A stretch of 40,347 bases of DNA, filler included, from Mycoplasmatota bacterium (lineage in GTDB: Bacteria > Bacillota_I > Bacilli_A > RF39 > UBA660): NCBI GenBank assembly GCA_012727915.1. It is 4 parts of 4 records of this genome, joined end to end, with 100 filler letters (N's around TTAATTAATTAA, not from the genome) between each part and the next. Parts side by side here need not be neighbours in the genome. Positions count along the whole stretch, not along the records: positions 10,275 to 20,859 come from JAAYGD010000019.1; 3 more parts are not named here. One strand, 5' to 3'. Within the stretch, counting starts at the first letter, position 1, and each line of letters opens with the position of its first letter. Below the pieces are notes generated by a model that had not been told where the DNA came from, searched no databases, and saw nothing but the letters and a program-made list of their open reading frames with translations. The position numbers and the translations under genes were made by a program. Below are positions 2,793-29,257 of this stretch, piece by piece.

Positions 2793-2850
2793 ATGTTATC
2801 ATAATATTGAAGTTTAGTCAATTGAAATAAAGAATATTATAGTGTAAAAT
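2793..2850. promoter_or_regulatory. Back-to-back divergent sigma-A promoters (rpmB and dnaE)
   Basis: Minus: TTGACT(2821-2816)-17-TAACAT with TG extension; plus: TTGAAA(2822-2827)-17-TAAAAT(2845-2850). Confidence 0.6.
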
Positions 2851-2870
2851 TAATATGAGAAGGTGATAGA

Positions 2871-5747
2871 ATGAATTATATTCCTTTATATGTAAAAACT
2901 AGTTATTCTATGTTATCTTCTTTATGTGATATAAAAAAGCTTGTTAGATGCGCTAAAGAAATAGATATTAAGGCATTAGCTATTACTGATAATAATATGT
3001 ATGGGACATTGGAGTTTTATAAAGAATGTAAAAAAAATAATATTAAACCTATAATAGGATTAGAATTAAAGATTAATGAAGAGATTTTGTTGTTATATGC
3101 TAAAAACTATAAGGGATATCAAAATTTAACTAATTTAACTTATATTAATCAAGATAGAGATTTAAATTATGAAGATTTAAAAAAATATAATGCAAATTTA
3201 ATTTGTATAGTTTTAAATATAGATTTATATAAAGATTTAACTAGTATATATATTAATTTATATCTAGGATATAGTAATGATTATATAGAAAAAAGTTTAA
3301 TAACTAATAATTTAGTATATATAAATAAAGTACTTTGTTTAAAGAAAGAAGATATTAAGTATTTAAAATATCTATATTTAATTAAAGAAGGAAAAAAGAT
3401 AGATAGTATAGATGAATATAATGTTGATGATAACTGTTATTTGGAATATTCTATAAAAAGTGATTTTGAAATTGAAAATGAAATAATAAAAATGTGTAAT
3501 ATTGATTTTAATTATAATCCCGATTTATTTCCTATTTATTCAAAGGATATTAATTCAAAAGATTATTTAATGGAATTATCTAAAAAAGGATTGATAAAGA
3601 GATTCGGTTCTAAGGTTAAAAAGAGCTATTATGATAGATTATTATATGAATTAGATATTATTAATAAGATGAAATTTAATGATTGTTTTTTAGTGGCTTA
3701 TGACTATGTAAAGTATGCTAGAAAAAATAAAATATTAATTGGTCCAGGTAGAGGAAGTGCCGCTTGTTCTTTGGTTTCATATTGTTTAGGTATTACTGAA
3801 GTTGATCCTTTAAAATATGATTTATTATTTGAAAGATTTTTAAATGTTGAAAGAATTAGTATGCCTGATATAGATATAGACTTTGAGTCAAATAATAGAG
3901 AAAAAGTAATAGATTATGTAATTAATAAATATTCAAATGTGAGAGCAGTTCCTATAATAACTTTTTCTTCGTTATCTGGAAGACAAGTTATAAGAGATGT
4001 AGGAAAAATATTAAATATTGATATAAAGAAGATAGATAGAATAAGTAAAATAATTGGTTATAATTCTTTAAATGAAGCTTATTTAAAAAATAAAGATTTA
4101 AAAAGTTATATAGAAAGTAATAATCTTGACAGTTTAATGGATATTAGTTTAAACTTAGATGGTTTAAAAAGACAAATATCATTGCATGCAGCAGGAATTA
4201 TAATATCTAATTTAAATTTATATGATTATATACCTTTACAAAAATATAATGAAATATATATAAGTGGTTTTTCTATGGAGCATTTAGAAGAATTAGGACT
4301 ATTAAAATTGGATTTATTAGGTTTAAAAGATTTAACATTGATAGAAAAGGTATTGGGAAAAATAAATATTGATTATAACAATATTCCTTTAGATGATGAG
4401 AAAACATATAATTTATTTAAGAATGGATATACAGATGGTATATTTCAATTTGAATCTGATGGAATGAAAAACTTTTTAAAAAAATTAAAACCAGATTCTT
4501 TTGATGATATTATAGCTGCTATTGCGTTATTTAGACCGGGTCCTTCATCTAATATTGATGATTATATAAAAAGAAAATATAGGAAAGAAAAATTTGATTA
4601 TATTCATGAAGACTTGGAAGAAATATTATCAAGTACTTATGGAATAATAATATATCAAGAACAAATAATGAAGATAGCAAATAAGATTGCTAATTATTCT
4701 TTAGGTGAAGCTGATGTATTAAGAAGGGCAATAAGTAAAAAGAAAAAAGAAGTATTAATGGATGAAGAAAGTAAATTTATAAATAGATCTATTGAAAATG
4801 GATATTCTGAAGATTTAGCAAAAGAAATATATCAATTTATATTAAAGTTTGCAAATTATGGGTTTAATAAAGCACACTCGGTAGGGTATTCAATACTTGC
4901 GTATAGAATGGCATATTTAAAAGCCAATTATACTAAGGAGTTCCTGGCCGAATTGTTGACTAATGTGATAGGTCAAGAAAATAAAACTAAGAAATATATT
5001 GAAGAATGTAAAAAAATGAATATTAATATATTAAAGCCTTGTATAAATGAAAGTTTAGGAGAGTATAAAGCAGAACTTGATGGAATAAGATATTCTTTAT
5101 CTGCTATTAAAAATATTGGATCATCATTATCAAAAGAAATATTAAATGAAAGAGCTAAAGGGGAATATAAAGATATATTTGATTTTGTTTCTAGAACATA
5201 TAAGTTTTTTAATAGAAAAATGTTGGAAAGTTTAATTGATTCTAATTCATTTGACCTATTTGGATATAATCATAAAACTATGATAAATAATCTGGATCTA
5301 TTAATTACATATGGTGAATTAAATAATGGATTGGGTAATTCATCTGTAGAAAAACCTTTAATAGAAGTATATGATGAGTATACCAAAGAAGAATTATCTA
5401 AAAGGGAAATAGATGTATTTGGTTTTTATTTATCTAATCATCCAGTTATTAGTTATAAGTTAAATTATGAAAACATAATAAATTCTATAGATATTAGTAA
5501 TTATTTTAATAAAGAAATTAATATGATTTTGATGATTGATAATATTAAAGAAATAAATACCAAAAATGGTAAACAAATGGCTTTTGTAAAGGGTAGTGAT
5601 GAGTTTGGAAGTGTTGATTTAGTGCTGTTTCCTAAGGTATATGAAAACAATAAAATTGAAATTGGAAATATATTTTTAATTAAAGGTAATGTTGAAAAGA
5701 ATATGTCTAAATATCAAATTGTAGTATCTAATTTGAAAAAAAATTAA
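2871..5747 (+). CDS. dnaE: DNA polymerase III alpha subunit (DnaE)
   Basis: GPGRGSAA, LLFERFLN, MPDIDIDF, HAAG, YGFNKAHS motifs; C-terminal OB fold. Confidence 0.97.
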   Translation: MNYIPLYVKTSYSMLSSLCDIKKLVRCAKEIDIKALAITDNNMYGTLEFYKECKKNNIKPIIGLELKINEEILLLYAKNYKGYQNLTNLTYINQDRDLNYEDLKKYNANLICIVLNIDLYKDLTSIYINLYLGYSNDYIEKSLITNNLVYINKVLCLKKEDIKYLKYLYLIKEGKKIDSIDEYNVDDNCYLEYSIKSDFEIENEIIKMCNIDFNYNPDLFPIYSKDINSKDYLMELSKKGLIKRFGSKVKKSYYDRLLYELDIINKMKFNDCFLVAYDYVKYARKNKILIGPGRGSAACSLVSYCLGITEVDPLKYDLLFERFLNVERISMPDIDIDFESNNREKVIDYVINKYSNVRAVPIITFSSLSGRQVIRDVGKILNIDIKKIDRISKIIGYNSLNEAYLKNKDLKSYIESNNLDSLMDISLNLDGLKRQISLHAAGIIISNLNLYDYIPLQKYNEIYISGFSMEHLEELGLLKLDLLGLKDLTLIEKVLGKINIDYNNIPLDDEKTYNLFKNGYTDGIFQFESDGMKNFLKKLKPDSFDDIIAAIALFRPGPSSNIDDYIKRKYRKEKFDYIHEDLEEILSSTYGIIIYQEQIMKIANKIANYSLGEADVLRRAISKKKKEVLMDEESKFINRSIENGYSEDLAKEIYQFILKFANYGFNKAHSVGYSILAYRMAYLKANYTKEFLAELLTNVIGQENKTKKYIEECKKMNINILKPCINESLGEYKAELDGIRYSLSAIKNIGSSLSKEILNERAKGEYKDIFDFVSRTYKFFNRKMLESLIDSNSFDLFGYNHKTMINNLDLLITYGELNNGLGNSSVEKPLIEVYDEYTKEELSKREIDVFGFYLSNHPVISYKLNYENIINSIDISNYFNKEINMILMIDNIKEINTKNGKQMAFVKGSDEFGSVDLVLFPKVYENNKIEIGNIFLIKGNVEKNMSKYQIVVSNLKKN

Positions 5748-5784: not shown

Positions 5785-7299
5785 ATGAATAAGAAACAAA
5801 AATTTATTAGTGTAATATTAACTTTATTTTTTTCAATGTTTGCATTAATTCCCTCATTTGAAAAAAACATATCAGCAAAAGAATTTCCCAAGAAATTATA
5901 CAATGTTTATTTGGATGGGAATCATATAGGAACTATAAATTCAAAAGATAGATTATATAAATATATTGATGATGATCAAATAGATTTAAAAGAAAAATAT
6001 GATATTGAGGAAGTGTATTTACCACAAAATCTTTATATTGAAGATTATATTGGGTTTGAATCAAATCTAATTGATGAAAGAAAGTTATACGAAACTATAA
6101 AAGACGAAAAACCTTTTACAGTTAAAGGATCTATTATTACAATAAAAAAGCCTAAAGAAGATGGTTCTTTTGATATTAAAAAAATAAATGTATTAAGAGA
6201 AGAAGATTATAAAAAAGCGTTGGAGAATACTATTAAAACTTTTATAGATGAAAATGAATACAATGTGTTTTTTGATGGTAATACTTACACTAACTTTGAA
6301 TTAGGAAGTACTATTGAAGATATATATATAGGTGATGAGGCGTTAGGAAATATTACTATTAAGAGAGATGCGCTTATTCCTTCTGATGAATATATATTTA
6401 CAGATGAAAAAAAGTTAACACATTATTTATTGTTTGGTACTTTGGAAGAACAAGAAAAATATATTATAAAAAGTGGTGAAACTATAGAACAAGTTGCTTT
6501 TGATCATAAATTAGGTACTAAAGAGTTTTTAATTATTAATCCCGAATTTAATAGTGAATCAAATCTTTTATATGAAGGTCAAGAAGTAAATGTAGGTCAA
6601 ATAGCAACAGTAGTTGATGTTTTAAAGGAAGAACAATTAGTAGAAGACTTTGTAACAAAATTTAAAACCGAAATAAAATATGATTCATCTAAACCTTATA
6701 GTTATTATAAAGTGACTCAAGAAGGAGAAAATGGTTTAGAAAGAGTAACTAAAAGAATTCAATATAAAAATGGTATAATTGCTAATGCTAAGATAACTAA
6801 TTCTGAAGTAATAAAAACCACAGTAAATAGAATTGAAGTTAGAGGGTCTAGAATATCAGGAGATCCTATTATTATTGCGGATGCTGGTAATTGGGAATGG
6901 CCTACCAAAACCCCATATATGATTTATAGTGATTATGGTTATAGATTTATATTTGGAGCTAGAGATTTTCATGATGGAATAGATATAATTACATTCCCTA
7001 CAATGGGTTCTCCAGTATATGCTGCAAATGATGGTAATGTTGTTGGAGCTTCTGGTGGTGGCTATAATAGCGGTAGAGGTGCTTATATTATAATTAATCA
7101 TAATAATGGATTTTACACCGCTTACTATCACTTATCAAAAGTATCTGTTACAATTGGTCAAGCAGTTACAAAAGGTGAGGAGATAGGAAAAATAGGAAAC
7201 ACAGGAAGATCTACTGGACCTCATTTACATTTTGGGGTAGGTAAAGGTGGACCACCAAGTTCAAATAATTCTATTAATCCAATTTTGTTATATAGATAA
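5785..7299 (+). CDS. LysM-G5-M23 peptidoglycan endopeptidase
   Basis: Signal/anchor helix, LysM-like YIIKSGETIEQVA..NP, G5-like QEGENG, M23 motifs HDGID and GPHLHF. Confidence 0.9.
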   Translation: MNKKQKFISVILTLFFSMFALIPSFEKNISAKEFPKKLYNVYLDGNHIGTINSKDRLYKYIDDDQIDLKEKYDIEEVYLPQNLYIEDYIGFESNLIDERKLYETIKDEKPFTVKGSIITIKKPKEDGSFDIKKINVLREEDYKKALENTIKTFIDENEYNVFFDGNTYTNFELGSTIEDIYIGDEALGNITIKRDALIPSDEYIFTDEKKLTHYLLFGTLEEQEKYIIKSGETIEQVAFDHKLGTKEFLIINPEFNSESNLLYEGQEVNVGQIATVVDVLKEEQLVEDFVTKFKTEIKYDSSKPYSYYKVTQEGENGLERVTKRIQYKNGIIANAKITNSEVIKTTVNRIEVRGSRISGDPIIIADAGNWEWPTKTPYMIYSDYGYRFIFGARDFHDGIDIITFPTMGSPVYAANDGNVVGASGGGYNSGRGAYIIINHNNGFYTAYYHLSKVSVTIGQAVTKGEEIGKIGNTGRSTGPHLHFGVGKGGPPSSNNSINPILLYR

Positions 7300-8536: not shown

Positions 8537-8636
8537 NNNNNNNNNNNNNNNNNNNNNNNNNNNNNNNNNNNNNNNNNNNNTTAATTAATTAANNNNNNNN
8601 NNNNNNNNNNNNNNNNNNNNNNNNNNNNNNNNNNNN
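8537..8636. other. Artificial contig linker
   Basis: N44-TTAATTAATTAA-N44, stops in all six frames. Confidence 0.97.
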
Positions 8637-8976
8637 GTATAAATAAGGCATCAATAATATTATATTTATCAAAATCATTGTATATTATTAAAGGTATTAA
8701 GAAGAAAATTATCATAATAGCAATTATTCTATAATCTAAAAACAAAGAATAATTATCAACATTAAATTTACTTAATATTAAAAATAGTGTACTTATATAA
8801 GATAAAAATTTAACAAAAGATGGTGTTTTTCTTTTTAATTCTTTTAAACCTAATAATTCTTTTAATGCAAGCAATCCCAATATAGAAACTGCTAATTTAA
8901 AAACATTTCTTCCATATATAATTACTGGTACAAATACTATTATCATTATTATTATTCCAATAATTCTTTTTTTCAT
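8637..8976 (-). CDS. cdsA: Phosphatidate cytidylyltransferase, N-terminal part (truncated by contig end)
   Basis: MKKRII..I....P....G..F......LG..ALKELL pattern typical of CdsA N-terminus; polytopic membrane profile; catalytic C-terminus not visible. Confidence 0.72.
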
Positions 8977-9021
8977 ACTCTCACCATATTAATTATATAT
9001 TAGTTGTCTATTTATATCAAG

Positions 9022-9981
9022 TTATTTAATGCTTATACCCCTATATAAAGTTTTATCTTTTAATGCTTTTGCATATGTATCTGTTATTAAAATATCTCCA
9101 TTAGGATTGATGCTCTTTCTCTTGGATATTTCGTCATAATATTCAACATTTGATTTTATAACGGATTCTTCATCGAGCATAAATAAATTTGCTCTCATAA
9201 AACAAGTTCTAAGAATATTTTTGCTATCTAATTTGCCTTTTACATTATGTTTTTTTAAATCAAATTGAGTTTTTTTCAAATTATCTAAAATTATCCCTCC
9301 GAATATTGATGCATTTATTTCATTAGGAATATCTGTAAATCTCATATAAAAATTAGCCATTATTGGGATATTATTATCAACTTCAAAGTTATTCATTAAC
9401 ATTTCTGATTCTAAATAATCATTTAAAAATATTAAATTATATTTTGCTTCAATCAATTCATATTTAATATTTTCATCTTCTATAGTATTTATGCTGTCTT
9501 GAATCATAGATAAATAAACCCTATTTATATCATCATTAAAAAGGTTATCACAATAAATTAGATACGAAGATAAACGCACCCCATATTTTATTTCACTATA
9601 TTTTTGAAGTTCTTCTTCTTTTTTTAAACTTTCAAGTTCCTGAAGTATACGATTAAATATTCTATTAAACAAATATCTATTTGGTAAATCTTTTGAATCT
9701 CTTATTATGCTTTCTTGATCATCAAATTGCCCTAACAATAATTCGTTTTTTAAATGTACACTTGCATTAATCATTTCTAATAATTTGTGTTCCTCTATAT
9801 CCATACAGTCTTTTATTAAATCATTTATGTTTGATAAAGAACTCATTGTTTCTTTAAAATCTTCGCTATCCTTAGAACCTATAGCTTCAAAATAAGCAAG
9901 GTCTTCATATAATTCTTTTCTTTTATTTATCAATGCTTCTTCTTTTTTATAGTTTAAATAAGCCAACTCAAATTCATCCAT
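9022..9981 (-). CDS. Hypothetical helical protein
   Basis: Long ORF; likely start ATG 9981 behind GGAGGG; no recognised motif. Confidence 0.75.
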   Translation of the reverse strand: MDEFELAYLNYKKEEALINKRKELYEDLAYFEAIGSKDSEDFKETMSSLSNINDLIKDCMDIEEHKLLEMINASVHLKNELLLGQFDDQESIIRDSKDLPNRYLFNRIFNRILQELESLKKEEELQKYSEIKYGVRLSSYLIYCDNLFNDDINRVYLSMIQDSINTIEDENIKYELIEAKYNLIFLNDYLESEMLMNNFEVDNNIPIMANFYMRFTDIPNEINASIFGGIILDNLKKTQFDLKKHNVKGKLDSKNILRTCFMRANLFMLDEESVIKSNVEYYDEISKRKSINPNGDILITDTYAKALKDKTLYRGISIK

Positions 9982-10088
9982 ACAACCCTCCATAAACATA
10001 TATAATATACTATTTTTATATATTTTCAAACTATAATTGATAATTTATTTCTTTTATGATAGAATATCAAATTAATTGAGGTGAAAGT

Positions 10089-10174
10089 ATGAAATATTCA
10101 TCAAATTTTGATTTTTATTTATTACCATCTAGATCTATTTTTACAGATTTTTTAAGCGAATATAAATATATAGA
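10089..10174 (+). CDS. 5' fragment of a gene cut by contig end
   Basis: GAGGTG RBS then ATG, open to the gap (MKYSSNFDFYLLPSRSIFTDFLSEYKYI...). Confidence 0.55.
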
Positions 10175-10274
10175 NNNNNNNNNNNNNNNNNNNNNNNNNN
10201 NNNNNNNNNNNNNNNNNNTTAATTAATTAANNNNNNNNNNNNNNNNNNNNNNNNNNNNNNNNNNNNNNNNNNNN
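10175..10274. other. Artificial contig linker
   Basis: N44-TTAATTAATTAA-N44. Confidence 0.97.
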
Positions 10275-11450
10275 GGAAAAAAGTCTACTGATTCATTAAA
10301 AAATATAGAAGAAATAAAAAAAGAATATACTGATTTAATATTAGTATTTCAAGAAAAAATAGATGTATTAACTAAAGCGCGAATAACTTATGAAAAAGAA
10401 ACACATAGAGGAGTTGAGTCTATAGCAAGCGTATCTCAAACACCAAACCCAACATCAACACCAAGCTCAACATCAACACCAAACCCAACATCAACACCGA
10501 GTGCAACGGATGAACCAATTGTAGCTCCAATATTAACACCACCACCAACCTTAGAACCAACGGATTCATCTAATATTCAAGATAATTCTTATATGCAAAA
10601 TGCAAATACTATAAAAGTTGATAATGGAATGTTACGTAACTTGGGAGTTAAATTTGATGGTGATGTTCCCAGAATGTATCAAAATGCTTATATATCTAGT
10701 TTAGGAGGAATGGATTATTTGGTTTCTTTTCCTAAAAATAATTTTGGAGAAACCCCAACAAATTTACCGGTTTTTGTTGAATTTCATGGAAATTCAGCAT
10801 CAAAAAATTGGGAAAAAGCTGGAGTTACTAACTCAACGTCGTTTAATGCTTTTATGGCGGGACCTGTTATGGGATTAAAGGCTACTCAAAATAATCCAAA
10901 TTTGCCGGCTATTATAATTATGCCACAATCTTCTGTACCTGGATTTATTGGCAATAATCTAGAAAGAGTTCATAATATTTATACCACTGTATCAAGTTCT
11001 TTAGATTCTGACAAGGCTGGTTTTAATGCTAATGTATTTAGTGCGGGTGGATCGGGTTTTTATAGATATTGTAAAGAATACTCTTCTGATGTAAAGGCAG
11101 CATATATTGTGGATCCGTCTACTTATGCTGATAAATTATCTAATGTTCCGCAAAATATACCGGTATATGTATTTACTTCAACTGATTCCGGCCCTTATAA
11201 CAGTCAGTTTTTAAAAGCTGTTGATAATTTAAATGCAAATTTAACAACACACGCTAATTTGTCAAAAGATGAACCTATTGAATTACTTAATATGATAGGA
11301 AATCCAAATTTAAATGGATATAATTTAATTAATGTTAATAATACTAAACATGAAGAATTAAGAGATTTGGTTTTTACACAAGATTTTTTTAACACTGTAT
11401 TAGCAAAAGATTTCAATCAACCAAATATGTGGATGTCCGCTTCAGAATAG
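10275..11450 (+). CDS. WXG100-like domain + P/T linker + alpha/beta-hydrolase, putative T7SS substrate, paralogue 1 (5' truncated)
   Basis: Frame of the 10593 ORF is open back to contig start (GKKSTDSLKNIEEIKKEYTDLILVFQEKID...), 37/49 aa identical to the WXG region of the next gene; hydrolase motifs LPVFVEFHG, AIIIMPQ, VFSAGG, IVDP, KH. Confidence 0.8.
   Translation, partial: GKKSTDSLKNIEEIKKEYTDLILVFQEKIDVLTKARITYEKETHRGVESIASVSQTPNPTSTPSSTSTPNPTSTPSATDEPIVAPILTPPPTLEPTDSSNIQDNSYMQNANTIKVDNGMLRNLGVKFDGDVPRMYQNAYISSLGGMDYLVSFPKNNFGETPTNLPVFVEFHGNSASKNWEKAGVTNSTSFNAFMAGPVMGLKATQNNPNLPAIIIMPQSSVPGFIGNNLERVHNIYTTVSSSLDSDKAGFNANVFSAGGSGFYRYCKEYSSDVKAAYIVDPSTYADKLSNVPQNIPVYVFTSTDSGPYNSQFLKAVDNLNANLTTHANLSKDEPIELLNMIGNPNLNGYNLINVNNTKHEELRDLVFTQDFFNTVLAKDFNQPNMWMSASE
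10440..10499 (+). repeat. 18-bp tandem repeat encoding TP(N/S)(P/S)TS linker
   Basis: acaccaaacccaacatca / acaccaagctcaacatca / acaccaaacccaacatca / acaccg. Confidence 0.85.
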
Positions 11451-11482
11451 AGTTTGTATTAAATAATAATAAAGAGGTGTTT

Positions 11483-12781
11483 ATGAATAATGTTTCAGTA
11501 GATTTAAGTAAAATGTTAAGTATTGAAAATGAATTAATTGTCTTAAAAGACAAGTTTTCAAACAAAATAAATGAAATAAATACAAGTATTGATTTAATAG
11601 ATAGTAATTGGGATGGAAAAAAATCAAATGAAACTTTAAAGAGTATAGAGGATATAAAAAAAAAATATAATGATTTGATATTAGTATTTCAAGAAAAAAT
11701 AGATGCATTAACTAAAGCAAGAACAACTTATGAAAATGAAACAAATAAAGGAGTTGAATCTACAGCAACAACAAGTCCGACGGCGACACCAAGTCCGACG
11801 GCGACACCGAGTCAGACAGCAACACCAAGCCCACAACCTCAATCAACAGTGGAAGCAACCACAAAACCCTATATGCCTACACACGATTTTTCAGGAAGCA
11901 CAGAAGCAATTGTTTTAGACAACCATGTGTTAAAAGATTTAGGAGTAGTTTTTGATGCTTCGGGAAATCCTATGAAAGTTGGAAATACATATGTAATAAA
12001 GCAACCTTATGGTAAGGGTTATAAAAACAATTTATTATATTTACCTGTTAATGAAAATGGAGATGTTCCAAAAAACTTACCAGTATTAATTGAACTTCAT
12101 GGAAATAATGAGGCGTCTAATTATATTGATGTTACTGAAATGCCTAATGTTATGGGAATTAGAGAAACAAATAATAATCCTAATTTGCCAGCAATTATCA
12201 TTATTCCCCAAGTAGATAACCCTAGATATTATGCTGATGATATAGATCCTATACATGATTACTATACTCAAGTAAAAAGTACTTTTGAAACACAGGACAA
12301 AGCCTTTTTATATGGATTTAGTGCTGGTTTGCATGGCGCAACAAAATATGCTGATAAATATGGTGATACAGATATTAAAGCCGCTGTTGTATTTGACGGA
12401 GCACCTAATAGTACAACATTAAAAAATATATCTCCAGATATTCCTGTTTTAGTAGTTGCATCCAATAATAAAATTAATGAAGTAAAAAGTACTTTTAATT
12501 ATTTAAAAAATTCAAATATATCATCTAGAGTGTATGACAGAATTGATGGGAGTCAGTTCTCTTGGTCGAAAATCGATGTTAATGATTTTAATGAATATGA
12601 TTCTGGAGATCCAAGAAATAGATATCGTTCTGTATTAGAAGATGCTTTAAATGGTAAAAATTCATCAAATGGAAATTTGAGTGTTGTAAATGTTTCGGGA
12701 GCAGGGCATGCTGCAATTAGGGATTTTGGAACTGGATCATATTTCTATGATACTGTCTTGAAAGTTTTATTTAGCAATTAA
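11483..12781 (+). CDS. WXG100-like domain + P/T linker + alpha/beta-hydrolase, putative T7SS substrate, paralogue 2
   Basis: Start ATG 11483 behind GAGGTG; N-terminal helical hairpin with central NWDG; PTATPS repeats; LPVLIELHG, nucleophile elbow GFSAG, VFDG, GAGH. Confidence 0.85.
   Translation: MNNVSVDLSKMLSIENELIVLKDKFSNKINEINTSIDLIDSNWDGKKSNETLKSIEDIKKKYNDLILVFQEKIDALTKARTTYENETNKGVESTATTSPTATPSPTATPSQTATPSPQPQSTVEATTKPYMPTHDFSGSTEAIVLDNHVLKDLGVVFDASGNPMKVGNTYVIKQPYGKGYKNNLLYLPVNENGDVPKNLPVLIELHGNNEASNYIDVTEMPNVMGIRETNNNPNLPAIIIIPQVDNPRYYADDIDPIHDYYTQVKSTFETQDKAFLYGFSAGLHGATKYADKYGDTDIKAAVVFDGAPNSTTLKNISPDIPVLVVASNNKINEVKSTFNYLKNSNISSRVYDRIDGSQFSWSKIDVNDFNEYDSGDPRNRYRSVLEDALNGKNSSNGNLSVVNVSGAGHAAIRDFGTGSYFYDTVLKVLFSN
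11772..11831 (+). repeat. 18-bp tandem repeat encoding SPTATP linker
   Basis: caagtccgacggcgacac x2 then cgagtcagacagcaacac. Confidence 0.85.
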
Positions 12782-12789
12782 TGTTTTGT

Positions 12790-12819
12790 AATAAGATTAA
12801 TGAATAATCTTATTTTTTT
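12790..12819 (+). terminator. Rho-independent terminator
   Basis: aataagatta-atgaa-taatcttatt + T run. Confidence 0.7.
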
Positions 12820-12821
12820 GT

Positions 12822-12850
12822 TTGCTTTTTAGTTCTATATAATATATAAT
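12822..12850 (+). promoter_or_regulatory. Sigma-A promoter for essC operon
   Basis: TTGCTT-17-TATAAT. Confidence 0.6.
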
Positions 12851-12889
12851 TAAATAAGATAATAGGGGTTATTTAAGGATGTGATACTT

Positions 12890-15800
12890 ATGCAGTTGTT
12901 ACTTATAAAAAAAGATAAAATCGATGTTATTAAGTTACCATCTAATATTTTTGGTAGTTATTGGATTCTAGATAAAAACATAACAAAAAAGAATCAAAAT
13001 TTAATTAATGTATTTGAAGAAAACGGAAGATGGAAAATAGTAAGCAATGAGGATAATAAAATTATCGAAAGTAATGGAATAACAGCCGAATCTTCCTTTC
13101 TTTCAGAGTACAGATTTTATTATATAAAAACAAAAGACAATATTGTTTATATATTATATGCTTGTCCGGCATATGATACTAGTACAATACAATTAGATTT
13201 TAATGAATTAAAAGAAATAAATATAGGGAAAGAAAAATCAAATGAGATAGTGTATGATTTAGAAATAATAGGTGATATAAACACAAAATTAATATTTCAA
13301 GATGAAAAGTGGAAAGTATTAGATTTAAATAGTAAATTTGGAACATATTTAAATAATAAATCTATTAAAGAGTCAGTTGTGGAAAATGGAGACATTATTT
13401 TTATTATGGGTCTGAAAATAATTGTTTTGGGGAAATCATTATTAATTAATAATCCATTTAATGTTGTTTCATATAATCAAAATATTTTTAAGTTAGCAAA
13501 ACCTGTAGTCTTTGAGTTTGAAAGAACAATCGAAGATGAAGAGAATATTGAATTGTATAAAGAGGAAGATTATTTTTCTAGATCTCCAAGATTCAAGAGT
13601 TTGATTGAAAAAGAAGTAATGGTTATAGATTCCCCACCTTCTAAGCAAAGTGCTGAAGAAATGCCATTAATATATATTATCGGACCTATGCTTACGATGA
13701 GTATGATGTCTCTAATGACTGTGTTCACTTCTTTAAACAGATATTTATCTGGAGAAGCTGAATTTAATACAGTTTTACCTTCATTAGTAATAGGCCTTGC
13801 AATGATGATTAGTATGATTTTGTGGCCTTTATTAAATAAAAAATATCAAAAGAAAAAGAAAATAGAATATGAAAAAGAAAGACAAAAAAAATATGGGGCA
13901 TATATTGATTCAAGAAGAGAACAATTAGAAGCCATATCAAAAAAACAAAGACAAATATTAATTGAAAATTATCTGCCAGCACCGACATGTGAGGTAATAA
14001 TTAATAATAAAAATAGACAACTCTGGGAAAGAAAAATAGAACAACCAGATTTTTTGGCGACTAGATTGGGTATAGGGAATACTCCTTTAGAGATCGATAT
14101 TAGGTATCCGGAATCCCATTTTTCAATGGATATAGATAATTTACAAGACGAGATAAATAGAATGGTAAATGTATCTAAAGAATTAAAAGACGTTCCAATA
14201 AGTATTTCATTTTGTGAGAAAAATTATTCTGCTTTGATTGGTAAAAGAAATTTAACAAATGATTTTATTAAAGAAATATTATTACAGTTTATTACTTTTC
14301 ATAGTTATGAGGACTTAAAATTAGTTTTTTTAATGGATGATAAGTACGAAGAAGAATGGGAGTATTTAAAAACTGTTCCTCATGTATGGTCTGATGATAA
14401 AACTATTAGGTTTTTTGCAACTACTTATGAGGAAATGAAAGAATTATCTTCAATATTAGAGCAAGAATTACAAGCAAGAATTGGTTCGGAAAACAATTCA
14501 TCAAAAGATTATAAATCTTTTATTCCTTATTATATAATAATTACAAATAATTATAATGTTTCAAAAAATATAAAAATATTAGGAGATGTATTAAAACAAA
14601 AGATTAATTATGGATATAGTGTGCTTGTAATTAATGAGACGTTATCTAATTTACCTAATGAATGTACTACGTTTATTAGTATTGATAGTAATAAAGGTGG
14701 AGTTTTTGAAAGCGAATTAATTTCTACAAAACAAAAAGAGTTTTTTCTTGATAAAGCTATATTAAATAATTTAAAACCCAGTTTAAAATTGCTTGCTAAT
14801 ACTCCAATTAAATTATCTAAAGAAATGTATTCTTTACCAAAAATATATACTTTTTTAGAGATGTTTGAGGTTGGTAAAGTTGAGCAATTAAACTCTTTAT
14901 ACAGATGGAAAACAAATGATTCTATAGTGTCATTACAAACTCCTATTGGGATAGATAGTCATGGAATGATTTCTAGATTAGATGTTCACGAAAAAGCGCA
15001 TGGTCCTCATGGTTTAATAGCGGGTATGACAGGTTCAGGAAAGAGTGAATTAATATTATCTTATATTGTTTCTTTAGCGGTTAATTATCACCCCGATGAT
15101 GTATCATTTGTATTGATAGATTATAAAGGTGGATTTTTAGTAGGAGCTTTGCAAAATAATGAAATTGGTATGAAATTACCTCATTTGGCTGGTTCAATTA
15201 CTAACCTTGATAATGTAGAAATGAATAGATCGTTATTATCTATTCAAAGTGAATTAAAAAGAAGACAAAGATTATTTAATGAAGTAAGAGAACAATTAGG
15301 AGAAAGTACTATTGATATATATAAATATCAAAAATTTTATCATGAGGGTTTGATTAAAGAACCAATTCCGCATTTATTAATAATTTCAGATGAGTTTGCG
15401 GAATTAAAAACACAACAATCAGAATTTATGGATCAATTGATAAGTACTGCTCGTATAGGAAGAAGTTTGGGAGTGCATTTAATATTATCAACTCAAAAAC
15501 CATCGGGTGTTGTTAACGATCAAATTTGGAGTAATAGTAGATTTAAAATATGTTTAAAGGTTCAAGAAAAAGCAGATAGTATGGATGTAATTAAGTCTCC
15601 TGATGCTGCTAGTTTGAAACAAGTTGGAAGATATTATTTGCAAGTTGGTTATAATGAGTATTTTTCTTTAGGTCAATCTGCATGGACGGGTGCTAAATAT
15701 TTCCCCTCAGATAAAATTAAAAAGGAAATTGATACTTCTATAGATTTTATTAACAATATTGGAACCATTGTAAAAGAAGTTGAAGAACAAAAAAACTTAA

Positions 15801-17500
15801 ATTTAAATTCTGAAGGAGAACAAATAACAGCAGTAGTAAATTATTTATCAAATATAGCTAAAAAAGAAAATATTAAAGTTAAGCAATTGTGGTTAGATAG
15901 AATACCTGATAAGGTATATATAGATAAATTAATCCAAAAATATAATTATAAAGTTGAAAAAGGAATTATTAATCCAATTATTGGTGAATATGATGATCCA
16001 TTTAATCAATTTCAAGGGGTTCTTACAATGCCTCTATCAAAAGAAGGAAACGCAATAATATATGGATCAGCTGATAGTGGAAAGGAATTACTATTAAACA
16101 GCATGATATACTCATCTATTACAAGTAATTCCGTAAATGAATTAAACTATTATTTGCTAGATTTTGGAACAGAGTCATTAAGAGTATTCACGGAGGCTCC
16201 TCAAGTTGGAGATGTTCTATATTCTGATGATGTTGAAAGAGTAAATAACATAATTAAAATGATAAAAAAAGAAATTAATAATAGAAAAAAAATATTTTCA
16301 GATTATTATGGAGACTATCAATATTATGTTAAAAATAGTGGAAAAGAACTCCCTACAATTGTTGTTGTAATAAATAATTTTGAAGCATTTCAAGAAACAT
16401 ATCCAAATTATGAAGAAGAAATTATTCAAATTACTAGAGAAGGTCCTAAATATGGAATAGTATTTGTGTTTACAGTTACTACTTCTAATTCAATAAGATA
16501 TAAATTATCTAAGAATTTTAGATTGAAGATATCTTTACAATTAAATGATGAAAATGATTATTCAAACATATTCGATAGAGTAAGAGGAAAATATCCATCT
16601 AAAGTATATGGAAGAGGTTTAATTGAATTGGATGCACTTCATGAGTTTCAAACATCTCATATAAAAGATGTTGAAGATATAAATGAATATATTATTTCAA
16701 CTTGTAACGAATTAAAAAACAAATATAAAGAACGCGCTAAAGAAGTGCTTATATTGCCTGAAAAAGTTACTTTAGAATTAGTTTCTCCATATTTTAAAGG
16801 GTTATCCTATGTTCCTATTGGTATAGAAAAGGAAGAATTAGATATTTCAACTTATAATTTTGAAAAGAATTTTACTAATATAATTACTTCACAAGATTAT
16901 TCTGGTTTTAGTAAGTTTATTAATGCGTTGATATCTCAATTAAGAAAGCAAAAAGAAGCAGATTTAATAATATTAGATAATGATGATATCTATGAAACTA
17001 GTGATACAAGTGGAATTAAATATTATAGAGCAGATCCAAATCAATTTATGATTGATTTAAGTTTGGAAGTAAATGAACAATATGATTTATATAAATCAAA
17101 TAATTATAATAAAAAAATACTAGATAAATATAAAAACAAACTAATAATAATATTGGGTATAGAGAAATTTAAAAACAGATTAACGGAAGAAAATCAAAGT
17201 TTACTGGAGGATTTCTTTTCCAAATCTCAAGAGTTATTTAAGCACATGTATATATTTGTCGAAAATGTTGACAAACTCAAGAAATTAGAATACGATAATT
17301 GGTATAGGAGTATAGTTAATACTAACCAAGGAATATGGTTAGGAAATGGCATCGCAGATCAATTTTCATTGAAACTTGTTAAAGTTGGAAAAGAGCTTTA
17401 TCAAGATATAGGAAATGGTTTTGGTTACATAGTTATTCGTGGTAATCCAGTATTAGTTAAGTTAATAGAACAAGAAAAATATGAGGGTGAAATATTATGA
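12890..17500 (+). CDS. essC: Type VII secretion ATPase EssC/YukB
   Basis: N-terminal FHA-like domains (DLNSKFGTYLN), FSRSPR, two TM helices, LWER, HGPHGLIAGMTGSGKSE, IDYKGG, DEFAEL, RIGRSLGVHLIL; start ATG 12890 behind AAGGATGTGA (GTG 12881 alternative). Confidence 0.96.
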   Translation: MQLLLIKKDKIDVIKLPSNIFGSYWILDKNITKKNQNLINVFEENGRWKIVSNEDNKIIESNGITAESSFLSEYRFYYIKTKDNIVYILYACPAYDTSTIQLDFNELKEINIGKEKSNEIVYDLEIIGDINTKLIFQDEKWKVLDLNSKFGTYLNNKSIKESVVENGDIIFIMGLKIIVLGKSLLINNPFNVVSYNQNIFKLAKPVVFEFERTIEDEENIELYKEEDYFSRSPRFKSLIEKEVMVIDSPPSKQSAEEMPLIYIIGPMLTMSMMSLMTVFTSLNRYLSGEAEFNTVLPSLVIGLAMMISMILWPLLNKKYQKKKKIEYEKERQKKYGAYIDSRREQLEAISKKQRQILIENYLPAPTCEVIINNKNRQLWERKIEQPDFLATRLGIGNTPLEIDIRYPESHFSMDIDNLQDEINRMVNVSKELKDVPISISFCEKNYSALIGKRNLTNDFIKEILLQFITFHSYEDLKLVFLMDDKYEEEWEYLKTVPHVWSDDKTIRFFATTYEEMKELSSILEQELQARIGSENNSSKDYKSFIPYYIIITNNYNVSKNIKILGDVLKQKINYGYSVLVINETLSNLPNECTTFISIDSNKGGVFESELISTKQKEFFLDKAILNNLKPSLKLLANTPIKLSKEMYSLPKIYTFLEMFEVGKVEQLNSLYRWKTNDSIVSLQTPIGIDSHGMISRLDVHEKAHGPHGLIAGMTGSGKSELILSYIVSLAVNYHPDDVSFVLIDYKGGFLVGALQNNEIGMKLPHLAGSITNLDNVEMNRSLLSIQSELKRRQRLFNEVREQLGESTIDIYKYQKFYHEGLIKEPIPHLLIISDEFAELKTQQSEFMDQLISTARIGRSLGVHLILSTQKPSGVVNDQIWSNSRFKICLKVQEKADSMDVIKSPDAASLKQVGRYYLQVGYNEYFSLGQSAWTGAKYFPSDKIKKEIDTSIDFINNIGTIVKEVEEQKNLNLNSEGEQITAVVNYLSNIAKKENIKVKQLWLDRIPDKVYIDKLIQKYNYKVEKGIINPIIGEYDDPFNQFQGVLTMPLSKEGNAIIYGSADSGKELLLNSMIYSSITSNSVNELNYYLLDFGTESLRVFTEAPQVGDVLYSDDVERVNNIIKMIKKEINNRKKIFSDYYGDYQYYVKNSGKELPTIVVVINNFEAFQETYPNYEEEIIQITREGPKYGIVFVFTVTTSNSIRYKLSKNFRLKISLQLNDENDYSNIFDRVRGKYPSKVYGRGLIELDALHEFQTSHIKDVEDINEYIISTCNELKNKYKERAKEVLILPEKVTLELVSPYFKGLSYVPIGIEKEELDISTYNFEKNFTNIITSQDYSGFSKFINALISQLRKQKEADLIILDNDDIYETSDTSGIKYYRADPNQFMIDLSLEVNEQYDLYKSNNYNKKILDKYKNKLIIILGIEKFKNRLTEENQSLLEDFFSKSQELFKHMYIFVENVDKLKKLEYDNWYRSIVNTNQGIWLGNGIADQFSLKLVKVGKELYQDIGNGFGYIVIRGNPVLVKLIEQEKYEGEIL

Positions 17501-17745
17501 ATAAAGTACATGTAATATTGTTTGTTCCAATGATAGAAGAAAAATATGAAATGTTTATTCCAATTAGCAAAAAAATTGGGATAATATCAAAACTATTAAC
17601 TAAATCAATAAATGAAATGTCTGATGGAGCATTTCCAATAAAAGACTCGCTTCTATACAACAAGGATGATGGCAAAATATATGATTTTAACATCACAGTA
17701 AAAGATTCAAACATACGAAATGGTTCTGAAATAATTTTGCTATAG
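17497..17745 (+). CDS. esaB: EsaB/YukD ubiquitin-like T7SS accessory protein
   Basis: 82 aa, YEMFIP...TVKDSNIRNGSEIILL pattern; ATGA overlap with essC stop. Confidence 0.8.
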   Translation: MNKVHVILFVPMIEEKYEMFIPISKKIGIISKLLTKSINEMSDGAFPIKDSLLYNKDDGKIYDFNITVKDSNIRNGSEIILL

Positions 17746-17763
17746 TAAGGAGGTGAAATGAAT

Positions 17764-18057
17764 ATGGATATTAAATATGATCCAGCTTTAGCTGAAGAGG
17801 AAAAAACAGGTATACAAAACAAACTTAATAAAGCGGTAGCTATATTAGATAGTATTAAAACTGATGTTAATGCTCTAGTTGGAGAGGGCGGCTCATTACA
17901 AGGAGCTGAATCTGCTCCTTTCAAACAAAAAATTGATACTTCAATTGATACAATGAATAAAAATTTGAGTAGCGTAGTAAATGGATATGTAACTGCATTA
18001 GAAAAAGCCGGACAAAACATTGCGGAAGCTAGTTCTAAAAATAGTAATTTAGGTTAA
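17764..18057 (+). CDS. WXG100-like (EsxA-type) protein with LQG instead of WxG
   Basis: About 97 aa helix-turn-helix, IKYDP start, central SLQGAESAPF; strong AGGAGGTG RBS (ATG 17758 alternative). Confidence 0.75.
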   Translation: MDIKYDPALAEEEKTGIQNKLNKAVAILDSIKTDVNALVGEGGSLQGAESAPFKQKIDTSIDTMNKNLSSVVNGYVTALEKAGQNIAEASSKNSNLG

Positions 18058-18073
18058 AAATAAGGAGGAAAAT

Positions 18074-18343
18074 ATGAAATATACAGTATCATATGAAGCA
18101 ATTGATACTACCATTATGAAATTGCAAAATGCAAAAGCAGCATTAAATTCTTATGTTAATTCAATAGCAGCTTCCATAAAATATTCAGTTGGCGTAAAAA
18201 GTCATGATGTTGATAAATTAAAAAATCAATATGAAACAGAAGTTGTTCCTTCTCAAAAAGAGTTGGAAAAAGCTATTAATGAAACAATAGATTATTTAAA
18301 TAATGTTAAAAAGAATTATCAAATTGCAACTGGTCAATTATAA
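18074..18343 (+). CDS. Second small WXG100-like helical protein
   Basis: 89 aa, amphipathic helices around central SVG, C-terminal YLNNVKKNY; AGGAGG RBS; context. Confidence 0.65.
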   Translation: MKYTVSYEAIDTTIMKLQNAKAALNSYVNSIAASIKYSVGVKSHDVDKLKNQYETEVVPSQKELEKAINETIDYLNNVKKNYQIATGQL

Positions 18344-18349
18344 TAATAT

Positions 18350-18411
18350 GTCTCTATTAATAGAGACTATTTCTAATTAAAATAAACATTATTTAATTAG
18401 AAATAGTTTTT
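18350..18411 (+). terminator. Double inverted repeat / terminator after the WXG pair
   Basis: Perfect 18-bp palindrome gtctctattaatagagac (18350-18367) overlapping a 16-bp-stem hairpin actatttctaattaaa..tttaattagaaatagt (18366-18407) + TTTT. Confidence 0.75.
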
Positions 18412-18429
18412 ATGGAAAGAGTGGTAAAT

Positions 18430-20859
18430 ATGGAAAAGGGTTTGTTAGTTGTTGATTTTGATGGGGTCTCAGCATATTCTCAAAATTTGAAAGTAAAAGC
18501 AAATAGTATAAAGAATAATTTAAGTATGCCAAGTTTGAGTGTGGCTGTTTTTGGATTGCTTTCTAATTATCAAATCGATTATACAAATCATGTAAACAAA
18601 TTAAATGTTTTTGCAGATGATTTATCAACCAAATTAAATTCATATAATGAAAATTTGCTTACTATAGAAGGATATGTAAAAAATGTGGAGAGTTCTTCAC
18701 GAAGCACAACGCCTTCACATGAAAATAATGATGGAAATTATTCTGGTGAAGGTCCAATAATGCTTCCTGGAAATCTTTTAGCAACTTCTGGATTTACACA
18801 TTTGCCAGTTAACGCTTCGTTAGAAGAAGTAAATCAAAGAATTAATGAACTTCTCAAAATATTGGGTTTAACTGTAACTGATTTATATTCGGGCAAATTT
18901 AATGAACTATTGCAACAAATTTTGTCTTTTGCACCAAGTTCGGTTACATATTTAGAGGTTTTAACTCAACTAGAAGAACTACTTATTCAAAAACATTTAA
19001 ATGATATGACTAAATCTCCAGCAAAACCAAAGCCTTTTCTACCAATAGAAGCATTCTTAATATATTTGGCATATAATAAAAATATTGATTATGAAAAAAT
19101 GTTGATTGATGAACAATATGCAAAAATGATTAAAGAAAGTTTAATTTTACATAAAGAATCATTAAAAGGATTATATGATTTATCATTAAAAGATGCTGTT
19201 ATTGCGCAAAAGGAATTGTTTAATATAATAAATTCACCAGACTTATCAAGCATCAAAGTTGATAATATTACTCTTGATATATTAAAAGGTTATTTAAATG
19301 ATGTTGCAAAAAGAAATGACATATCACTAGAGGCTATGCTTACAAAAGAAGAATATGCTCCGTTAGCAAAAAAATCGTTAGAAGAATTTTTAAAATTCTG
19401 GTTATATGGAGAAGAAGGAAATATTCCTATTTCTGATGTAGTTAAAAAAATAGAAGAAATAGCTTTAAGCAATAATTCAAGTGTAGAAGAAATATTAAAA
19501 GGATTAAATACTGGTGCTTTAACTGAACTGGCTAATAATATTGATAATAACTCATTTGGAGAAATTATAAATAACATGGATGGCAAAAATATTCAAAATT
19601 TTATTGAAGAAATAGTAATTAATAATCAACATCCAGAAGTTAAAGAAAATCCCGTTATTAAGGAAATAGTTAATTCTATTGTTAGAAATAAAGATTATAT
19701 TTTAAATAAAGGACCGAAGACAATATCTCCAATTAAAATGGAAGATATTTCTAGTATAGAACCTTTACCACAAGAAACAAATTGGGAAGAAATAGTAGAT
19801 GAGGATTTAAAAACAATTTTAACAGATCCTCAATACTCTGATAAATTAAAAGAAGTTATATCTGAGGATAGTAATTTTAATTGGAGTGGTTTAATACCTT
19901 TAGGAGCTGGTTTAGGGTTAATTCCTTTAATTGTAGCACTAAGCAAAAAAGATAAAACAAAAAAAGATTATAAACCTTCTACCGAGAACTCTAAGAGAGG
20001 CTTAATAAATGAAAGCTTCACTTATTTTGCGGACTCAAATATAGTAACTGAAGAGTCATTATTAGACGGAACAAATTTTGAATTATTAACTATTTATTTA
20101 AGTCAACTAGATAGTCTAACTGCAATACTAAATGTTTTGTCAATAATGAAAGACGAAATTTTGCAAAAATATTTTCTTGAATTATATAATCAAAAATATG
20201 AACATATTTGGGGAATAGGATCAATTAATTTAAAAATTATATTTAATAGTCTTGAACAAAAAGCAAAAAAACAAGGACTTGATTTGAATACATTTTTAAA
20301 TAATTCAAATTACGAAGTTTGGGTAAAAACTGCTATTGTAGAATTGCTTAAATTATATGAAAAATATGATCAAGACATATCTATAAAAGGAGGATTAACA
20401 TATTATTTAAACGACTTATTTATAAATTCAAATAATTCAAAAAATATATCTCTTTTGAAAGAATATCTAGAAGTTTATTCAAAAAGTTTAGATATCGATA
20501 CAAATTCTTATTTAAACCAATTGACTGATAATATAAGTAAAAATAAGATTTTTGCCATTATTAATTTTGGAGATGGTTTTAAAGGTTTTTCTTTTGGAAT
20601 TCTAGAAGAAATAAATATATTATTAAATAAAAACAAAAAGATTGAAAATATTGAATCTAATATTGTTGATAGTAGAGTTATTGAATCTTCGGGTTTAACT
20701 TTGTTGTTGTTTAATTCAACTGATGACCAAATAGAAAAATCTATATTAAATATTATTGACAAGTATTCTATTTCTAAAGAAGATTTCTATAATAATAAAG
20801 ATAACTATTTTAATCAAATTGTTAACACTGCACCAAATTTAAATGTTGTTTTGTTCTTA
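18430..20859 (+). CDS. Large T7SS-associated protein: helical N-terminus, one central TM segment, internal helical repeats (3' truncated)
   Basis: ORF of over 800 aa open to gap; TM WSGLIPLGAGLGLIPLIVALS followed by KKDK; recurring L..A....I.....L....Y....K..L motif; ATG 18412 alternative start. Confidence 0.8.
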
Positions 20860-20959
20860 NNNNNNNNNNNNNNNNNNNNNNNNNNNNNNNNNNNNNNNNN
20901 NNNTTAATTAATTAANNNNNNNNNNNNNNNNNNNNNNNNNNNNNNNNNNNNNNNNNNNN
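20860..20959. other. Artificial contig linker
   Basis: N44-TTAATTAATTAA-N44. Confidence 0.97.
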
Positions 20960-29251: not shown

Positions 29252-29257
29252 ATTAGT

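Follow-up and report, generated by a model that had tools for sequence, protein, structure and literature searches.

Predicted WXG100-like carrier–linker–esterase genes upstream of essC in an ultra-small Mycoplasmatota bacterium

Closest described systems and the gene pair

The mycobacterial protein LipY consists of a PE carrier, a linker and a serine hydrolase, is exported by ESX-5 (one of the type VII secretion systems (T7SSs), of the T7SSa type) and has a nutritional or lipolytic role. TslM is reportedly a lipase toxin of the Staphylococcus aureus T7SSb. Here, we describe a tandem pair of paralogous genes of similar layout, gene 1 and gene 2, located directly upstream of essC in a 40,347-base stretch of DNA from a draft genome of a Mycoplasmatota bacterium (GCA_012727915.1). 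This whole stretch is called the window. Fusions of WXG, LXG and LDXD carriers to toxin domains, alpha/beta-hydrolase toxins included, are described as T7SS polymorphic toxins in PMC3482391. In TslA, a phospholipase of the T7SSb, the domain order is reversed; it requires the small partners TlaA1 and TlaA2 and has the immunity lipoprotein TilA (PMC10730906).

Our preferred reading, with a probability of roughly 0.6, is that the pair encodes substrates of an EssC-type T7SS, each built of a WXG100 carrier, a linker and an esterase, which would act on ester bonds outside the producer and would need no immunity protein. The first ~90 residues would serve as a helix-turn-helix export carrier of the WXG100 type for the adjacent EssC system and, by analogy with WXG100 proteins, would probably form a dimer. 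The repeat-encoded Pro/Thr linker (~50 residues, flexible and length-variable) would tether the catalytic domain of ~300 residues. This domain is predicted to be CE1/esterase-D-like, with Ser280 as nucleophile, His206-Gly207 forming the oxyanion hole, His409 as base and Asp305 as the likely acid. Once exported, the enzymes would hydrolyse ester bonds of material beyond the producer, most likely of the envelope or lipids of neighbouring cells, and would work alongside sister effectors that combine the same carrier with cell-wall-hydrolase-like domains. Immunity would be dispensable because the attack comes from outside and the producer would not expose the substrates. The analysis shows the architecture, the two modelled folds, the conserved residues, the synteny with essC, the reuse of the carrier and the missing immunity ORF beside the pair; we infer its export, dimer formation, catalysis, substrate and ecological role.

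Both genes lie on the same strand and are paralogues (39% identity over 308 amino acids (aa), E 2e-55), and the gap between them is exactly 32 nucleotides (nt). The first-pass annotation, made from the sequence alone, had described two adjacent paralogues upstream of essC with this gap, Pro/Thr tandem-repeat linkers, a GFSAG (gene 2) or VFSAG (gene 1) elbow, an HG motif and a C-terminal His; all of these were located at the expected places (Table 1). It had also seen the complete order of WXG100-like hairpin (NWDG), linker and hydrolase in both genes. The layout stands, but NWDG is visible in gene 2 only. Gene 1 is 5'-truncated because contig C75 begins at 10275, and its translation opens with GKKSTDSL..., directly past the WDG turn, so that its NWDG is outside the window. 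The closest relative of gene 2 is the protein P0003 (71% identity, covering 100% of the query).

Seven genomes of the genus were compared, among them G007, G226, G449 and G467; G000 is the source genome. All are drafts (74–94% complete) of 0.6–1.0 Mb, from ultra-small bacteria of anaerobic digesters and landfills.

The missing part of gene 1 was found in other data. A near-identical full-length form is present in a public protein collection (P0004, 423 aa, starting with MNNIEV...NWDG). Contig C7 of G000 carries a tex-like gene followed by a contig-terminal N-terminal fragment of 100 aa (MNNVEV...NWDGKKS...). The locus is intact in G007, in the order ABC transporter, tex, hyd1 (419 aa), hyd2 (446 aa), essC, ORFs (open reading frames) of 82, 97 and 89 aa, and a membrane protein of 1387 aa. 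Moreover, public contigs from four studies also break at the near-identical N-terminal region. We therefore regard position 10275 as an assembly break in the near-identical carrier region. The fragment on C7 (G000:C7:7392-7691, L003) is a mosaic, gene 1-like in its first half (as P0004) and gene 2-like in its second half; it represents a third copy or else a chimera made in assembly across the repeated carrier sequence. Two sequence variants of region 11464–11629 occurred in public contigs, with 0 and 14 differences.

The first-pass annotation had likened the layout to that of LipY. The design is the same, but carrier family, secretion system and hydrolase family differ, and the PE domain was not hit. 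The likeness is an analogy and not a relationship, because WXG-type carrier–toxin fusions are already described (PMC3482391). With the WXG/LXG polymorphic toxins of that source, the pair shares an N-terminal helical T7SS trafficking domain with a variable C-terminal enzyme, the reuse of the carrier within one genome and the gene position beside a YueA/EssC-type ATPase. It differs from them in three respects: it has no immunity gene next to it, its carrier has just ~90 aa and is followed by a repeat-encoded Pro/Thr linker, and the hydrolase is CE1/esterase-D-like with no Pfam match above threshold, whereas Tox-ABhydrolase-1 and -3 are lipase-like. TslA likewise has an esterolytic domain of the alpha/beta-hydrolase type that leaves the cell through a Bacillota type VII system by means of a helical targeting domain (PMC10730906). 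The domain order in our pair is the opposite one, and no small helical or lipoprotein genes stand beside it.

A literature search on WXG100, esterases and type VII secretion gave no WXG–esterase fusion of Bacillota in the titles and abstract openings listed, more than half of which deal with mycobacteria, and the supplements of PMC11217815 and PMC3482391 may list related architectures. Among the papers listed by a search on type VII secretion, reduced genomes and epibionts in Bacillota, nothing relevant was found. The pair stands apart from the described systems by a repeat linker on a carrier of WXG100 size, an esterase outside the curated models and the ultra-reduced genome, and also by the consistent lack of adjacent immunity genes.

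Carrier, linker and catalytic domain

The AlphaFold2 model of full-length gene 2 (predicted local distance difference test (pLDDT) 77) has helices at residues 8–42 and 48–87, with W43-x-G45 at the turn (loop 43–47). When the carrier was modelled alone (pLDDT 81), two long helices resulted as well (residues 4–42 and 46–91). In a Foldseek search of this model against the PDB, the best matches were nearly all WXG100 proteins, aligned end to end with template modelling (TM) scores of 0.70–0.81 and a root-mean-square deviation (rmsd) of ~2 Å. The matched WXG100 structures were EsxA/EsxB (4lws), CFP10-ESAT6 (3fav), 3zbh, 3o9o, 4j11, 3gwk and 2vs0. The hairpin fold proposed in the first-pass annotation is thus what the models return, and its statement that a signal peptide is lacking was borne out here and across the same-genus genomes.

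All 11 family members have the tryptophan of the turn (W43); in one of them it belongs to W-S-S instead of W-x-G. Six relatives each gave WXG100 matches independently (E 2e-4 to 6e-3). A profile of the N-terminal domain gave weak matches to PDB sequences (E 0.012–0.8), with WXG100 entries mixed with coiled coils. The LXG family (PF04740) had no hmmscan match at E ≤ 0.1, and the carrier has ~90 aa versus the ~200 aa of LXG. Members of the WXG100 family are stand-alone proteins of ~100 aa; the carrier here continues into a linker and an enzyme of 300 aa. Based on the models, we classify the N-terminal domain as a predicted WXG100-like carrier, i.e. a sub-threshold, fused member, and neither as a canonical stand-alone WXG100 protein nor as LXG. 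When the N-terminal domain was folded together with the proteins of 99 and 89 aa encoded 3' of essC, the complex prediction had a score of 0.01, which is no evidence either way.

Residues 89–138 of gene 2 had a pLDDT below 50 and are predicted to be disordered. The number of linker repeats varies between populations. In gene 1, 36 nt were missing in contigs of the runs X2 and X5 (two studies), and P0004 is 12 aa shorter than gene 1 at the linker repeat. In gene 2, a contig of run X1 (another study) had an insertion of 18 nt behind 11785. A further length difference was seen in the carrier of gene 2, where the A-run 11650–11659 had a deletion of 1 nt in minority contigs (depth 2.5/60.3 in X1 and 6.51/10.9 in X5). 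It may reflect an assembly or mapping error, or slipped-strand variation.

The C-terminal domain was modelled with a pLDDT of ~90, with Ser280 between strand 274–279 and helix 281–297 and H409 after strand 399–405. Foldseek matched it at E ~2e-7 to EstA (2uz0), FphF (6vh9), S-formylglutathione hydrolases and LC-Est1. With VIA-align, Z was 18.4 to 3doh and 15–17 to antigen 85A/B/C, esterase D and feruloyl esterases. Hence, the alpha/beta-hydrolase fold named in the first-pass annotation is supported. Compared with the esterase D/FphF/EstA/antigen 85/CE1 group (6vh9, 2uz0, 3doh, 1sfr, 1jjf), the fold is alike (Z 15–18 over ~200 residues, rmsd 2.6–3.4 Å), and the HG oxyanion motif and GxSxG elbow are common to both and aligned in the phmmer match to 6vh9. 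The sequence identity to this group is just 10–21%, its members have no T7SS carrier, and the putative acid of our family lies past strand beta-6 in 8 of 11 members.

Among 1.84 billion representative proteins, an exhaustive HMMER scan returned just 23 at E ≤ 1e-3 and 7 at E ≤ 1e-10. All close matches (P0003, P0005–P0009, P0011, P0012 and P0016) have a hairpin, a Pro/Thr- or Ser-rich linker and a hydrolase. The distant matches carry Esterase (PF00756), Abhydrolase_2, PETase-like, Esterase_PHB or Peptidase_S9 domains, and the distant relatives at E 1e-7 to 1e-4 bear PF00756, PF02230 or PF00326. In the protein atlas, the neighbours are generic esterases, with a 'poly(3-hydroxybutyrate) depolymerase' cluster among the nearest. 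The best Pfam match of the hydrolase domain alone was Hydrolase_4 (E 0.1).

None of the 11 family members departs from S280, G282 or H409, and 10 of them have H206 of the H206-G207 motif. The nucleophile elbow of gene 2 (G-F-S-A-G) fits the pattern strand-Sm-x-Ser-x-Sm-helix. Eight of the 11 members have the Asp directly past beta-6 (D305 in gene 2), and none of these has an acid after beta-7. The remaining three have no beta-6 Asp and show GDxD or GKKD after beta-7. The beta-6 and beta-7 acids are mutually exclusive, a pattern that suggests a complete triad whose acid takes one place or the other. In the alpha/beta-hydrolase superfamily, the acid can occupy alternative positions.

Synteny, immunity genes and competing explanations

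Carrier-module proteins and essC are both present in all seven genus genomes, and, judged by coordinates, the slot upstream of essC is occupied by a carrier-module gene in five of the seven. The hydrolase type was found in five of seven; the two genomes without it are 74% and 86% complete. A hydrolase gene adjoins essC in G000, G007, G226 and, by coordinates, G467. The gene order is tex, hyd1, hyd2, essC in G007 and tex, hyd, essC in G226; in G467, a single contig carries both, with the end of the hydrolase gene at 1001 and the start of the essC match at 1755. The linkage to essC proposed in the first-pass annotation therefore holds in these four genomes.

The same carrier was also found on other C-termini. 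Contig C69 of G000 encodes a 403-aa protein with the carrier module and a CHAP/NlpC-P60-like C-terminus (PF05257, E 2.8e-3), and contig C29 carries a copy of the module with a papain-like C-terminus (L004, G000:C29:3757-4650, minus strand). G449 has a tandem pair of carrier fusions of the CHAP/papain-like kind. Because the same carrier module precedes C-termini of the hydrolase, CHAP/NlpC-P60-like and papain-like kinds, we regard the carrier-module proteins, as far as sequence allows, as a predicted polymorphic family of type VII effectors. Between G000 and G226, Tex and EssC are 76.5% and 74.9% identical, and the hydrolase (28–34%) and the small helical proteins (29–33%) are much less so. By these identities, the effector parts appear to diverge far faster than the machinery, as is typical of exported proteins.

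The copy on C29 has TGA in place of TGG for the tryptophan of the WxG turn and, because of this TGA at a W codon under genetic code 11, is a pseudogene. Beside it, two ORFs of unknown family (187 and 81 aa) are divergently transcribed. Genetic code 4 was considered since this TGA falls exactly on the turn codon, and it was rejected. In 377 long frames delimited by TAA/TAG, 166 of 215 in-frame TGA codons were within the first or last tenth of the frame; TGG occurred 1060 times, and TGA terminated 87 of 547 long ORFs of G000. Judged by codon usage, the organism uses the standard bacterial code (code 11).

The sister proteins bear on what the enzymes act upon. The pair could encode digestive exo-enzymes for non-cellular substrates, for instance plant polymers with acetyl or feruloyl esters, poly(3-hydroxybutyrate) (PHB) or fats in digesters and manure, with the T7SS as a general export route. 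An immunity gene would then be unnecessary. The structural neighbours include the cellulosomal feruloyl esterases 1jjf and 1gkl, the PHB depolymerase cluster is close in the atlas, and near-identical DNA was found in 20 runs from 10 studies of landfill, bioreactor, anaerobic digester, manure and wastewater metagenomes, one of which may be where the assembly itself came from. The cell-wall-hydrolase-like domains on sister proteins with the same carrier point instead to cells as the target, and Sec-type N-termini occur on other exported enzymes of the genome, e.g. the M23 peptidase at 5785–7299 (read from the sequence). We consider the digestive explanation quite unlikely.

The first-pass annotation had seen no immunity ORF next to the pair, and this was confirmed at the pair and in the same-genus genomes. 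Fifteen other ORFs of at least 30 aa were found in 10275–12900, every one inside gene 1 or gene 2 in another frame, which leaves no room for an immunity gene at the pair. G007 and G226 have no ORF of 50 aa or more in the gaps separating tex, the hydrolase genes and essC. No immunity-sized ORF was adjacent to any of seven hydrolase genes (two in G000, two in G007, one in G226 and two in G449), and tandem orphan immunity arrays were not present at the hydrolase genes examined. Next to its CHAP-type paralogue, G000 has an ORF of 102 aa, which lacks conservation in G007; a tRNA-like stretch (by eye) takes its place there.

These results count against classical interbacterial toxins of the lipase or phospholipase kind (cf. 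TslA and Tox-ABhydrolase), whose immunity proteins would be encoded elsewhere or be too divergent or too small to recognise. Also against them, the nearest structures are carboxylesterases and CE1-type enzymes, not the lipase families of Tox-ABhydrolase-1 and -3. T7SS effectors with a helical carrier and variable C-terminal toxins are nevertheless an established class with immunity partners (PMC3482391 and PMC10730906). Moreover, module shuffling, tandem duplication and fast divergence within the family would suit toxins, and the relative G010 encodes an LXG-like carrier with a hydrolase among three small WXG-like genes. On balance, we think a toxin function rather unlikely. If an unlinked immunity gene turns up, the pair would represent one further polymorphic toxin family.

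Outside the genus, the full-length architecture was not found in samples of the wider lineage (201 genomes from 200 genera and 401 genomes from 145 genera), and a search of the gene 2 protein against genome contigs confirmed no relative. With P0005, metagenome contigs gave one locus of 2.2 kb, which matched over the N-terminal part alone and was left aside. In the family, essC was present in 80 of 201 sampled genomes. Other genera have longer helical carriers fused to canonical hydrolases. In G261 (L052, C4:4723-10413), three tandem hydrolase genes with WXG-containing carriers are followed by a 95-aa WXG100 gene and then by two effectors with C39-like and lysozyme-like C-termini (by eye), with no obvious immunity genes between. 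A second effector cluster of G000 (L031, G000:C15:4001-9609) has WXG100-like ORFs of 125 and 123 aa, a helical ORF of 103 aa and a protein with a long helical N-terminus, which extends past the contig end after more than 610 aa. A 231-aa open frame of G000 (L030, G000:C30, ORF 2820-3515) matched PF06013 at its N-terminus with 27.1 bits and reaches the cut-off of 27.3 when the neighbouring matches in the frame are summed; its C-terminal extension is Gly/Ser-rich.

Several points weigh against the preferred reading. The N-terminal domain of gene 2 matched PF06013, when scanned alone, with E 2.8e-4 and 21.5 bits (cut-off 27.3) and TIGR03930 with E 1.1e-4 and 22.3 bits (cut-off 44.85), i.e. below both thresholds. 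The Foldseek E-values of the carrier are weak (0.03–1), as is expected because the hairpin comprises only ~90 residues. Pfam and NCBIfam scans of the whole proteins of gene 1 and gene 2 gave no hydrolase model at E ≤ 0.1, the elbow of gene 1 has Val for the first small residue, and the putative acid Asp305 is at a non-canonical position, after beta-6 and not after the usual beta-7. Enzymes that act on feruloyl esters, acetyl esters and PHB belong to the fold class too, so that several substrates would fit. The hydrolase genes of G449 are located beside tex, and essC is on another contig. An immunity gene may exist even though none is adjacent, and the lipid-auxotrophy context given below is circumstantial, coming from drafts of the completeness stated above.

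The sub-threshold assignment of both domains, the weak Foldseek values of the short helical hairpin and the G449 gene would also fit proteins that are not secreted, with the hairpin as a generic coiled-coil domain for oligomerisation or as a stalk, and with an incidental adjacency to essC. Such an explanation would have to account for top PDB matches that are almost all WXG100 and aligned end to end, an invariant turn tryptophan, a carrier-module gene upstream of essC in most genus genomes and a module common to proteins with exo-acting enzyme domains. We regard it as very improbable.

Secretion locus, window make-up and lipid context

The coordinates of the locus are collected in Table 1. EssC matched TIGR03928 with 1009.8 bits (cut-off 778.4), FtsK_SpoIIIE with E 5.4e-37 and FHA with E 1.8e-5. 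Of the small proteins encoded 3' of essC, those of 99 and 89 aa are helical and weakly WXG-like, and the 82-aa ORF is EsaB-like by eye alone. The large helical-repeat protein, which belongs to the secretion locus, has 1387 aa in G007 (1392-codon open frame), with a hydrophobic middle and C-terminus by eye. In the locus (window 17497–20859; L032 in G000:C11; L029 in G007), a WXG-like ORF of 104 aa was observed after it.

Searches for YukC/EssB (PF10140) and YukD (PF08817) gave no match at E ≤ 1 in G000 (93.8% complete); EssA and EsaA were not searched. The first-pass annotation had assumed export by a T7SSb. EssC with its FHA domain stands, but EssB/YukC and EsaB/YukD were not found by Pfam. 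By gene content, the locus does not appear to be a textbook T7SSb. T7SS gene clusters vary among Bacillota (PMC11217815), and the locus matches none of the types T7SSc–j of that source by their descriptions in the text available. It may be a T7SS variant not previously described.

A terminator had been noted after the pair. A weak AT-rich hairpin with a T-run is present there, but a consensus terminator scan made no call. The hairpin (12790–12814) folds with -6.6 kcal/mol (z -1.57), and 13 of 200 shuffled sequences fold equally well. Together with the T-run, it may be an intrinsic terminator.

Table 1. Positions of the gene pair, the secretion locus and the artificial spacers in the window (repeat copy numbers from Tandem Repeats Finder, TRF).
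Feature	Position	Strand	Details
Gene 1, 5'-truncated	10275..11450	+	391 aa seen: second hairpin helix, Pro/Thr linker, alpha/beta-hydrolase with VFSAG elbow
Gene 1 linker, 18-nt tandem repeat	10439..10498	+	3.3 copies (TRF)
Gene 1 hydrolase domain	10611..11447	+	HG 10785-10790, Ser 11040-11042, Asp 11112-11114, His 11349-11351
Shine-Dalgarno-like AAAGAGGTG	11471..11479	+	Upstream of the gene 2 ATG
Gene 2, complete	11483..12781	+	432 aa plus stop
Gene 2 WXG100-like hairpin carrier (predicted), residues 1-88	11483..11746	+	W43-D-G45 at turn, W at 11609-11611
Gene 2 disordered (predicted) Pro/Thr linker, residues 89-138	11747..11896	+	18-nt repeat at 11768-11829, 3.4 copies (TRF)
Gene 2 alpha/beta-hydrolase	11906..12778	+	H206-G207 12098-12103, S280 12320-12322, D305 12395-12397, H409 12707-12709
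Weak AT-rich hairpin and T-run	12790..12824	+	Between gene 2 and essC
essC, FtsK-type type VII ATPase, N-terminal FHA	12881..17500	+	TIGR03928, FtsK_SpoIIIE, FHA
Three small ORFs 3' of essC (82, 99, 89 aa)	17497..18343	+	Conserved in G007 and G226
Large helical membrane protein	18412..20859	+	3'-truncated by contig end; matches no known family
Spacers	8537-8636, 10175-10274, 20860-20959	.	Each N44, TTAATTAATTAA, N44
Spacer between C74 and C75	10175..10274	.	Removes 5' end of gene 1

The window consists of the four contigs C70, C74, C75 and C76, joined by three artificial spacers. The gene order across spacers is not real because separate contigs were joined, and the three ORFs running into spacers are truncated (X runs in their translations). 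The pair opens contig C75 (10275–20859 of the window), and the genes at 8637–10174 are on another contig and are no true neighbours of it. The source assembly comprises 76 contigs with 872,930 bases (93.8% complete, 0.23% contaminated, 25.2% G+C). Elsewhere in the window, a tRNA gene was seen at 249–319 and a T-box leader (97.9 bits) at 29256–29431; T-boxes are common in Gram-positives, and the leader is consistent with a Bacillota-type lineage.

Genes of lipid synthesis were searched for in the genus. Neither ketoacyl synthase (PF00109) nor PlsC-type acyltransferase (PF01553) was found in the four genomes searched (G000, G007, G226 and G449); G010 had no match to the former and four to the latter. 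PlsY (PF02660) and the DgkB-type kinase (PF00781) were found in none of the seven genus genomes, and neither PlsX (PF02504) nor DegV (PF02645) was found in G000. Mur ligases were present in all seven (4–5 per genome); peptidoglycan synthesis is thus present. A CdsA-like fragment was seen at 8637–8976 of the window. Judged by gene content, the organism is a walled, probably lipid-dependent member of anaerobic engineered communities, and the genus as a whole seems to rely on lipids from outside. Since no canonical gene of fatty-acid or phosphatidate synthesis was found in the genus genomes searched, a resource-harvesting role of the esterases is plausible. The first-pass annotation had suggested nutrient scavenging or the degradation of host or prey surfaces; the carrier fusions to cell-wall-hydrolase-like domains and the searches for lipid genes lend this circumstantial support. 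The extension of this idea is more speculative and, in our estimate, doubtful: the T7SS itself would be a harvesting device, whose immunity-free effectors with WXG hairpins (esterases and cell-wall hydrolases) open or strip neighbouring cells for lipids and nutrients that the producer cannot make.

If the proteins are secreted and active, the pair would represent a compact design of T7SS effectors and an uncatalogued esterase family. Their apparent function without adjacent immunity genes questions the rule that the T7SS enzymes of Bacillota are toxin–immunity pairs. With this locus, a link from type VII secretion to nutrient and lipid acquisition in genome-reduced bacteria becomes testable. 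Should the harvesting idea be true, the system would be no weapon of kin competition but would match, in a Bacillota-type form, the parasitic lifestyle of Patescibacteria.

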